Shown: positions 20,401-23,400 of the stretch, piece by piece | Layout of the letters: each line of letters begins with the position of its first letter | Position numbering within the stretch: position 1 is the first letter of the stretch | Source: Parvularia atlantis | Taxonomy: Eukaryota | Length of the DNA stretch: 42,676 bases | Assembly (NCBI GenBank): GCA_943704415.1 | Contig: CALSCO010001722.1 | Coordinates: 1-42,676 of the forward strand | Direction of reading: 5' to 3' | Made by a program: the position numbers and the translations under genes | Notes under the pieces: model-generated | Databases searched by the model: none | The model's input: the letters and a program-made list of their open reading frames with translations, nothing else | Told to the model about the DNA's origin: nothing

Positions 20401-23400
20401 TGGGCCACACTCATCTCAGACGTCGACGGCCGTTCGTACTGTACCTACGCAAGCGAGTGCGCTTTCTCGAGCGAGAAGCGAGGCACCGTCATGCGTCACA
20501 TCCGCGAGGTGCACGAGCATGCGACTGGCTCAAACTTCACGCACAACGTGTCTTTCTGCGTCACCGGCAAGCACAACATGCTGTACTCGCTGAACGATCC
20601 TCGTCATGGCAGCAAGCCCGCCAAGGTCAACCCCGCATGCGATCTTCTTGACGTGGACCGGCACCGTTCGATCCGCTTTGTCGCTCGTGCACAAGACGGA
20701 TGCCAGCCCGAGGACGACATCGCCAACGACGTCGCTTTCCTTCGCACGCTGCCGCACTTCGACCACCAGCAAGACGCCAACCCGACCTCACGCGAGCAGC
20801 GGCTGCACGACTTCCTTTGGCTGATGGGCTTTTGGCTGGGTGATGGTACCGTGAACCCGACACGATGCGCTTTCGGGCAGATGAAGGCGACCGGTCGGTC
20901 GGAGCTCGAGAGCCGCCTGCGCGCACTCGGATACGAAGAAGACGCGGACTGGACCAAGGACAATCAAGAGTACCGACTCATCGGCGAGGCCAAGCGCCGG
21001 TGGTGCGCCTTCCTGTGGCCAGAGTACGAGTGTCACTACCAAGAGCTACGCGAGGCCAAGTCTCTGCGCCAGACTGCGAAAGCATCGAACCTGAACGGTC
21101 GGCCGGTTGAGTCGGTCGTGAGCTCGACCAAGTGGGCCATGACTTGGATGCTACGTCGTCTCAGTGCCAAAGCAAGTCGCTCGCTTCTCGACGGTCTGCG
21201 CGTCGCAGACGGTGACTACAGCAGCAAGGGCGCATTCTTCACGTCCAGCACGCGATTCCGTGACGAGATTGCCCAGATCGGCATCAACGCTGGCTTCAGC
21301 GTCAGCTTCGCTGTGAACGAGGACCGGGGCGCGGTCAAAGAGCGCCACAACGTCAACTGGCGCGTTTCCCTGTCCGAGAAGAAGTCCACCGCCATCGTGC
21401 CGCGTACCGACATCAAGACGACTCTGCACACGGGCAACGTCTGGTGCCTGACTGTGCCGCCGCACCACATCATCCTCGTGCGCCGTATGGTCAAGACCGT
21501 GTGCCCAGACAGCAAGCGTCCCGTTACTGTGCCGAGCCGTCCGATCTGGATGGGCAACTCGCACGACATTGAGCGCTACACGCGCGCCAAGTTCCTCGAC
21601 TACGTGCGTGCTGCTGCGTGTGCGGTGCGGTGCGGCGCTGACCCGCGCCACCGCCGCCGCCCACCAGACGACCGACAACATGCCAATGTACCCGTCGCCC
21701 ACGGGCGTGATGGTCGGCATCGACCTGGCGTACAACCTGCACAGGTGCGCTCCTTTGCTCTGGCGCACAGCACCACGGCTCACGCCGCCGCGGGGGCACG
21801 CCGCAAACAGCGCCTACGGCAACTACTTCCCCGGGCTCAAGCCGTTGATGCAGCAGGCGATGGCCAAGGTGCGTCGCGCGTCAGCGCGTTGCAGCCCACT
21901 GAGCGTGCGCCACGCCCCAGATCATGAAGGCCAACCCGGCGCTGTACGTGCTGCGCGAGCGCGTGCGCAAGGCGCTGCAGCTCTACAGGTGCGCACGCGC
22001 GTTGTGTTGTTGAGCGGGCGCTGATCGCCGTCTGTCGCGCACAGCTCCGAGCCGACCGAGCCGTACCTGTCGTCGTCCAACTACGGTGCGCTGCGGGTGC
22101 GCCCTCTGTCGTCGCGGTGCTCATGCGAGCGCGTCGTGCAGGCGAGCTGTTCTCCAACCAGACGATCTGGTTCGTCGACGACACGAACGTGTACCGCGTC
22201 ACGATCCACAAGACGTTCGAGGGTGCGCTGGGGGCGCCGCTGGCGCGCGCGTCAGTGCACCTGACGTCATGTCACGCACGTGTGCGCGTGCAGGCAACCT
22301 GGTGACCAAGCCGATCAACGGCGCGAGTACGTCGACCGCGCTCGCGTGCGGAGCTGGCCGTGTGCTGACGCGTCGTTGCGCGTGCGCCCGCGCAGTCTTC
22401 ATCTTCAACCCGCGCACGGGCCAGCTGTTCCTCAAGATCATCCACACGAGCGTGTGGGCAGGCCAGAAGCGCCTGGGCCAGCTGGCCAAGTGGAAGACGG
22501 CCGAGGAGGTGGCAGCGCTGATTCGCTCCCTGCCCGTGGAGGAGCAACCCAAGGTGCGTCGCGTGTGCGCAGGTCGGCTGGTGAGCACAGCGCGCTGACG
22601 GCGGCTCGTGCGCGCAGCAAATCATCGTGTCGCGCAAGGGCATGCTGGACCCGCTCGAAGTGCACCTGCTCGGTGCGCGGCGGATGCACATGCGCCGTGT
22701 GTGGTGCTGACACGCGCCGCCGCCACCAGACTTCCCCAACATCACAATCAAGGGCTCGGAGCTGCAGCTGCCGTTCCAGGCGGCGCTCAAGATCGAGAAG
22801 TTTGGCGACCTGATCCTGAAGGCGACGGAGCCGCAGGTGCGCGGCCGCGGTGAAAACGATGCGTGCGGTGCGGAGGTCTCACGCACACGCGCAGATGTGC
22901 CTGTTCAACCTGTACGACAACTGGATGCAGAGGTGCGTGGTCGCGCTTGCGAGGGGAAGCGCCTGACGTGTGGGCGCGCACACGGCAGTATCTCGTCCTA
23001 CACGGCCTTCTCGCGCCTGATCCTGATCCTGCGCGCGCTGCACGTGAACAACGACAAGACGAAGGTCATCCTGCGGCCAGATAAGACGACGATCACGCAG
23101 GAGCACCATATCTGGCCGACGCTGTCCGACGAGTGCGTGCTGGGCGCCTGCGCGGGCGTGGCTGCTGATGCGCGCGTGCACACAGAGACTGGATCAAGGT
23201 CGAAGTGGCGCTCAAGGACCTGATCCTGGCCGACTACGCCAAGAAGAACAACGTCAACACGGCGGCCCTGACCCAGTCCGAGATCCGCGACATCATCCTC
23301 GGCATGGAGATCTCGGCGCCGTCGCAGCAGCGGCAGCAGATCATCGAGATCGAGAAGCAGACGCGTGAGCAGTCGCAGCTGACGGCCGTGACGACCAAGA

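Follow-up and report, generated by a model that had tools for sequence, protein, structure and literature searches.

A Conserved, Atypical C2H2-Type Finger in a Splicing-Domain Loop of a Prp8 Intein from Parvularia atlantis, Probably an Accessory DNA-Binding Module

The window analyzed here (the whole 42,676-nucleotide stretch of contig CALSCO010001722.1 from Parvularia atlantis) carries on its forward strand an intron-rich Prp8 gene at positions 5900 to 24534, delimited by three-frame translation with an approximate start, and this gene contains six in-frame inteins. Three-frame translation placed inteins 2 to 5 at positions 10468 to 11688, 12280 to 13926, 15827 to 17662, and 18426 to 19373, respectively, all on the forward strand. 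Intein 1 (positions 8659 to 10044, forward strand) belongs to the same family as intein 6 (26% identity over 418 columns, E = 9e-25), occupies another Prp8 site, and has no finger; Pfam gave no C2H2 match in any of inteins 1 to 5 of this Prp8. Strand-strand-helix inserts follow block B in inteins 2 to 5 (10720 to 10950, 12580 to 13000, 16400 to 16680, and 18660 to 18830), in the place of the PI-SceI recognition region, with intein 3 seemingly having two. By eye these inserts resemble AP2 domains, with a supporting Pfam match in 0 of 4. For comparison, the five inteins of the Anaeramoeba Prp8 have been termed remarkable (PMC10710043, available part), while the Capsaspora site-f Prp8 intein appears by eye to belong with inteins 1 and 6 in one family (PMC5784728, available part). 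In the accessible portions of four reports covering Prp8 inteins of sites a to g (PMC6805012, PMC3749507, PMC5784728, and PMC10710043), a zinc finger is not mentioned.

Two further observations concern intein sites of this gene. At the intein 3 site, between NPHE and CLSR, the window has Cys where the table of Green 2018 lists Ala for an intein-free Prp8 site. In addition, a GT-AG spliceosomal intron at positions 19686 to 19746 splits the Leu codon that immediately precedes the site d Cys of Prp8 inteins; in Bathycoccus, intron and intein are mutually exclusive at site d, and the intron lies in phase 1 of the same codon (PMC3749507, available part). A lake metatranscriptome contained exact pieces inside intein 6 and one exact piece running into an intron, with none across the finger, and is thus uninformative on transcription.

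Searches for inteins at the site of intein 6 recovered P0003 and P0004 (2 matches among 7,995 scored candidates) and P0018 (one of 2 matches among 7,986 longer candidates). For further same-site inteins, a search at shorter length returned 0 of 1,127 candidates, a metagenome scan yielded 2 loci among 391 stretches (P0003's own locus and a distant RNA polymerase intein), and a viral scan yielded a single block A match.

Intein 6 (P0001; positions 20044 to 21558, forward strand) comprises 505 amino acids from Cys1 to Asn505 and lies between WGDFD and SHDIER, with Ser at +1. Model and sequence both indicated a Hint fold with a nested LAGLIDADG endonuclease domain (20794 to 21378), in which the catalytic Asp, Lys, and Asp are present as D267 (block C), K363 (block D), and D389 (block E). 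The standard splicing residues C1, T174, H177, N505, and +1 Ser are all in place; the block B TxxH (TGKH, residues 174 to 177; 20563 to 20574) is kept in all four same-site inteins, in which the penultimate residue is Gly and not His. The AlphaFold2 model, based on an alignment of 47 sequences (pLDDT 84.4, pTM 0.83), was aligned by VIA with TliVMA (Z 25.2, rmsd 4.5, 326 aligned) and with the PI-SceI-DNA structure (Z 17.5, rmsd 5.1, 330 aligned). By sequence and predicted fold, intein 6 has the features of a standard cis-splicing LAGLIDADG intein, and both splicing and cleavage are predicted.

A loop insert (residues 79 to 166; 20278 to 20541) extends between the strand ending in MVEC and the block B strand, at a position equivalent to PI-SceI residues 53 to 67 as mapped through intein 2, with intein 6 equated by position and not by direct alignment. 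It contains a poorly conserved linker (residues 88 to 116; 20305 to 20391) that is predicted to be disordered (pLDDT under 50), followed by a finger module (residues 117 to 160; 20392 to 20523) in which in-context AlphaFold2 predicted a short helix, a beta-hairpin, a short strand, and a long helix. The original prediction had reported a C-x5-C-x12-H-x4-H motif between blocks A and B, in a stretch without counterpart in intein 1, and it was right on each point: in-frame translation of positions 20437 to 20514 gave the same 26 residues (132 to 157) and spacing, and the alignment agreed on the location. The predicted ligands are C133 (20440), C139 (20458), H152 (20497), and H157 (20512), and the predicted recognition helix (residues 145 to 157; 20476 to 20514) bears an invariant Lys at −1, Gly at +2, and Arg at +6. 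The possibility that the insert is an RNA intron was ruled out, since its reading frame is open to the intein on both sides and its conservation is that of a protein. A second, shorter insert (residues 25 to 41; 20116 to 20166) is common to all four same-site inteins, is modeled at high confidence, and occupies the loop where other clades have a finger or a helix-turn-helix-like domain.

With classical C2H2 fingers the module shares the C...C-x12-H-x4-H spacing (two Cys and two His with the 12-residue spacer in all three finger-bearing inteins, the window's, P0003, and P0004), and a beta-beta-alpha fold is predicted for it. It differs from them in having five residues between the Cys (usually two to four), in being a single copy, in carrying an N-terminal helix-strand extension, in lacking the canonical Phe and Leu, and in scoring under the Pfam gathering cutoff. 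The "expected Phe" claimed originally was not confirmed as such: the canonical Phe position, four after the second Cys, is Ser, His, and His in the window, P0003, and P0004, and the canonical Leu position, three before the first His, is Val, Thr, and Ala. The window's Phe lies two residues after the second Cys, where P0003 and P0004 have Val, and the aromatic position two before the first Cys is Phe in P0003 and P0004 and Ser in the window; it looks as if the core aromatics have been swapped between the window finger and the other two. In the model, the helix and strand added at the N terminus may stand in for the absent canonical core.

Profile search and structure prediction, the checks suggested with the original prediction, gave a divided outcome. 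Pfam zf-H2C2_5 (PF13909) matched one of the three copies, the window finger, below its cutoff (E = 0.0015 to 0.014; 15 to 18.5 bits versus 27), and the beta-beta-alpha fold found support in the in-context model only, in which the finger reached pLDDT 72 to 80 over residues 121 to 150 and 57 over residues 151 to 160. Folded alone from three sequences, the finger had a pLDDT of 49.8, too low to be of use, and the fold searches with this isolated model (no Foldseek match at E ≤ 0.001, no VIA-align match at Z ≥ 2 among 48,161 chains) were uninformative. No solved zinc finger of this type matched by sequence among the PDB sequences. BED fingers have Cys-x2-Cys, an N-terminal aromatic motif, and a longer Cys-His spacer, whereas the intein 6 motif has Cys-x5-Cys and a 12-residue spacer, so that the resemblance is limited to the N-terminal helix-strand; Pfam gave no zf-BED match at E up to 5 in any of the three fingers. 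Zinc binding through C133, C139, H152, and H157 is predicted. Judged by its sequence, the motif is a real, selected, atypical C2H2-type module, one that fails the strict classical C2H2 core test.

Conservation in homologous inteins, on which the original prediction had staked the motif, was indeed found, as two of the three other same-site inteins keep all four ligands, together with most of the helix (P0003, 58% identical; P0004, 50% identical). Unlike the finger ligands, 6 of the 10 other Cys positions of the intein vary. Within the P0003 cluster, the motif occurs in 13 of 14 members, the 14th being a 52-amino-acid fragment. Of the 505 positions, 203 (40%) are invariant in all three inteins that bear the finger; the helix (residues 145 to 157) reaches 11 of 13, which makes it the joint top 13-residue window, level with the best windows of the endonuclease domain, whereas the neighboring linker (residues 81 to 119) has 1 invariant position in 39. 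The hosts are widely divergent: upstream exteins are identical at 41 of 44 positions between the window and P0003 and at 30 of 44 between the window and P0004. In the helix, comparison with locus L001 revealed 8 changes at third codon positions, as against 1 at first and 2 at second positions, and 7 of the 11 identical residues are encoded by a different synonymous codon; selection thus acts on the helix at the protein level. Helix positions −1 and +6 are the usual base-contacting positions of C2H2 fingers. Moreover, the D/K/D catalytic residues of the endonuclease are intact in all three finger-bearing same-site inteins. A basic cluster opens the loop insert at residues 170 to 180 of P0003 and of P0004 and is weak in the window's copy; it could be a nuclear localization signal or an extra DNA-binding arm.

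In P0018, the anchor-to-anchor loop measures 13 residues, compared with 85 in intein 6, 72 in P0003, and 103 in P0004, and the finger is absent. In its endonuclease, the Lys of block D is missing and the Asp of block E is replaced by Asn, while C1, the block B Thr and His, and the terminal Asn are retained for splicing. In a tree of 33 inteins (from 35 delimited rows, 4 of which were dropped, 3 for doubtful boundaries and 1 as a distant intein, and 2 added), the four same-site inteins formed one group (100/100), with P0018 sister to the finger-bearing P0004 (99/97). The same sister pair was recovered at 95/91 from 18 rows after removal of the loop columns, with P0018 on the longest branch (0.59 versus 0.26 to 0.34); on these 18 rows, also with loop columns removed, the AU test did not reject a finger-only clade (p = 0.109). 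A single event, with secondary loss of the finger along with endonuclease decay in P0018, is favored but not proven, and P0018 may instead never have had a finger. The host of P0018 is again a Prp8 that carries several inteins, no fewer than three, with one more of the intein 6 family lying further downstream.

Because fingerless P0018 has lost two catalytic residues yet keeps its splicing residues, the finger can be read as part of the homing machinery: this conserved, atypical C2H2-type finger in a surface loop of the splicing domain is probably an accessory DNA-binding domain for the homing endonuclease. After splicing, the free intein would bind an intein-less Prp8 allele, and the finger, on its flexible linker, would place its helix, with Lys −1 and Arg +6, into the major groove next to the sequence that the LAGLIDADG domain recognizes, a contact that would add affinity or shift the specificity of the endonuclease. 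Once homing is over, the finger would become dispensable and could be deleted. The PI-SceI loop that corresponds to the insert site is said, after Moure 2002, to touch DNA. That the PI-SceI splicing domain bears DNA contacts is stated in the available parts of two papers (PMC3267165 and PMC4065246). The earlier proposal that a DNA-binding module broadens target recognition has indirect support, from selection concentrated on recognition-helix positions and from one same-site intein in which the finger is missing and the endonuclease has decayed. By analogy, the finger would most likely act like the PI-SceI recognition region or the finger of HO, which contains residues required for cleavage (PMC7282813, available part).

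Other explanations of the finger have to be weighed against an accessory DNA-binding domain. Finger loss along with endonuclease decay is also compatible with a real zinc finger that binds protein, chromatin, or RNA (it might, for instance, recruit the excised intein to chromatin or to sites of repair) or is packed on the intein as a structural module, a reading that we regard as unlikely. Single fingers usually bind DNA weakly, which counts in its favor, and among the Atlas look-alikes of the finger (scores under 0.9, leads only) are the families zf-C2H2_jaz and zf-met. Inserts elsewhere in the wider intein family also matched, below the cutoff, UBZ/C2HC (P0042, E = 9e-4), PHD (P0067, E = 0.004), and B-box (P0105, E = 0.003) modules; because UBZ, PHD, and B-box modules bind proteins, this analogy warns that the inserts of the family need not all bind DNA. 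However, the invariant residues of the finger are the basic ones at −1 and +6, and the module hangs on a disordered linker, both of which argue against a protein-binding or structural role.

It is improbable that the finger is simply carried along neutrally or that its Cys/His pattern arose by chance in a hypervariable loop. Although the loop is highly variable across the family, long low-complexity inserts are frequent in family inteins, and the isolated finger folds poorly, only 123 of 20,000 shuffles of intein 6 yielded such a motif, and the contrast between helix and linker holds in hosts whose upstream exteins are as little as 30/44 identical; helix conservation and synonymous codon changes largely refute this explanation. 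Very improbable, finally, is a zinc sensor that switches protein splicing and hence Prp8 maturation, even though the finger directly precedes the block B strand and the Cryptococcus Prp8 intein is inhibited by zinc (PMC6805012, available part). Published zinc inhibition takes place at the catalytic Cys and the terminal Asn of finger-free inteins (PMC6805012 and PMC10663303, available parts), and P0018, whether it lost the finger or never had one, retains all splicing residues in an essential gene. Furthermore, the other five inteins of the same Prp8 have no C2H2 match, and conservation is centered on basic residues at the surface, for which a sensor would have no use. Zinc control of splicing, the second role put forward in the original prediction, is therefore disfavored, given that fingerless P0018 keeps its splicing residues and that the published inhibition needs no finger.

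Deleting or grafting intein accessory domains (ACDs) changes binding and cleavage, and Beyer and Iwai (2022) hypothesized that ACDs are captured from transcription factors, with DNA-binding domains from host genes letting inteins escape extinction (PMC8966425, available part). Known examples are the DNA recognition region of PI-SceI and the ACDs of TliVMA, PI-TkoII, and PI-PfuI, which share with intein 6 an extra module in an endonuclease-bearing intein. The described ACDs have helix-turn-helix-like or other folds and lie between the endonuclease and Hint or downstream of block B (PMC8966425, available part), whereas the intein 6 module is C2H2-type and lies upstream of block B. As expected for a discrete, removable domain, the insert is absent from P0018 and intein 1, with the core blocks appearing intact in sequence and model. 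On these grounds the finger is a new form of intein accessory domain, whose DNA-binding role is the probable one argued above. In HO and WHO, an intein-type LAGLIDADG nuclease is likewise joined to a zinc finger; these proteins, however, have no exteins, have lost block G, and bear Ash1/GATA-like fingers of the Cys-x-x-Cys type at the C terminus, in contrast to the single internal Cys2His2 motif, the full set of splicing residues, and both exteins of intein 6, which therefore falls outside HO/WHO. WHO and HO have been called the sole known intein-zinc finger fusions (PMC7282813, available part), and a layout of LAGLIDADG plus zinc finger is said to occur only in these two (bioRxiv 10.64898/2026.08.13.744650, available part). 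Full-text literature searching, in the titles and abstract openings it returned and with subscription journals mostly uncovered, gave no description of a C2H2 finger in a splicing intein. A finger within an intein bearing all splicing residues would extend that layout beyond HO and WHO. Moreover, the locus offers a natural test of the Beyer-Iwai proposal, with same-site inteins with and without the module and one case tied to endonuclease decay, and a Hint loop able to accommodate a folded module that binds DNA, as predicted here, would be useful for meganuclease engineering.

The source of the finger was sought in several collections. The PDB sequences gave only a partial CCCH match (E = 0.67), and no donor was found in 50,697 phage records, among 31 candidate stretches of viral contigs, or among 19 candidates from prokaryote genomes. 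Since these searches turned up no donor, and single fingers of viruses and bacteria are among the closest Atlas look-alikes, the description of the module as captured from a eukaryote is unproven.

A search of 1.84 billion representatives for the wider intein family returned 460 matches at E ≤ 0.001; examination covered the best 150, and 116 inteins were delimited in 155 proteins. The intein 6 finger profile, run on these 155 proteins, found only its own three sources, while a loose Cys/His pattern occurred in 16 of the 116 inteins, in several of them by chance. The majority of the family lacks a finger, yet 47 of the 116 have all three catalytic residues in a motif screen that undercounts them, which speaks against the accessory-domain reading. 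A second clade of seven inteins in different host proteins (P0026, P0039, P0042, P0046, P0067, P0083, and P0156) shows by eye a C-x2-C...H-x4-H finger shortly after block A, in a loop other than that of the intein 6 finger; it is intact in P0026, P0046, and P0067, has lost its last His in P0083, and is absent from P0039, P0042, and P0156. This finger had a Pfam match in 0 of 4 and resembled ZFY fingers weakly (E = 0.23), and no homology with the intein 6 finger was detected by HMM (E > 2) or hhalign (probability 0.3). P0083 is the sole member of the clade with all three catalytic positions changed, which, together with the loss of its last finger His, fits a link between finger and homing. Three members speak against such a link: in P0039 and P0042, the catalytic residues look intact and the finger is absent, and P0046 keeps the finger and has Asn in place of the block C Asp.

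Together with the sub-threshold matches named above, the insert of P0030 resembles a homeodomain or helix-turn-helix-like domain, also below threshold (E = 0.027). As leads, these inserts suggest that small modules were captured repeatedly, and apparently independently, into Hint loops of related inteins. Going further, we would tentatively propose, as a possibility short of probable, that this widespread eukaryotic LAGLIDADG intein family repeatedly captures small nuclear reader modules as swappable targeting parts by which homing is extended or redirected (two apparently unrelated C2H2-type fingers and helix-turn-helix-like, UBZ-, PHD-, and B-box-like modules, all in splicing-domain loops), with intein 6 as a splicing-competent natural zinc finger-meganuclease. 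If true, this would lend the capture model of accessory domains support from nature and would open a way for inteins to spread non-allelically.

Some minor features of family members were also observed. P0027, hosted by a prolyl-tRNA synthetase, and P0030 share one site and a long helical insert after block A; in the trees they are the outgroups that branch closest to intein 6, through a long-branch join. Cys-rich inserts with two Cys pairs lie inside the endonuclease linker of the DNA polymerase B inteins P0113 and P0115. Second-clade inteins are closely similar in different hosts (Ku, RPB2, and others), which suggests recent non-allelic spread, and their zinc-module insert after block A varies. 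P0026 and P0083 carry a 31- to 33-residue insert at one position, directly after the block D Lys/Arg-Trp, which may be an unspliced spliceosomal intron within the intein coding sequence.
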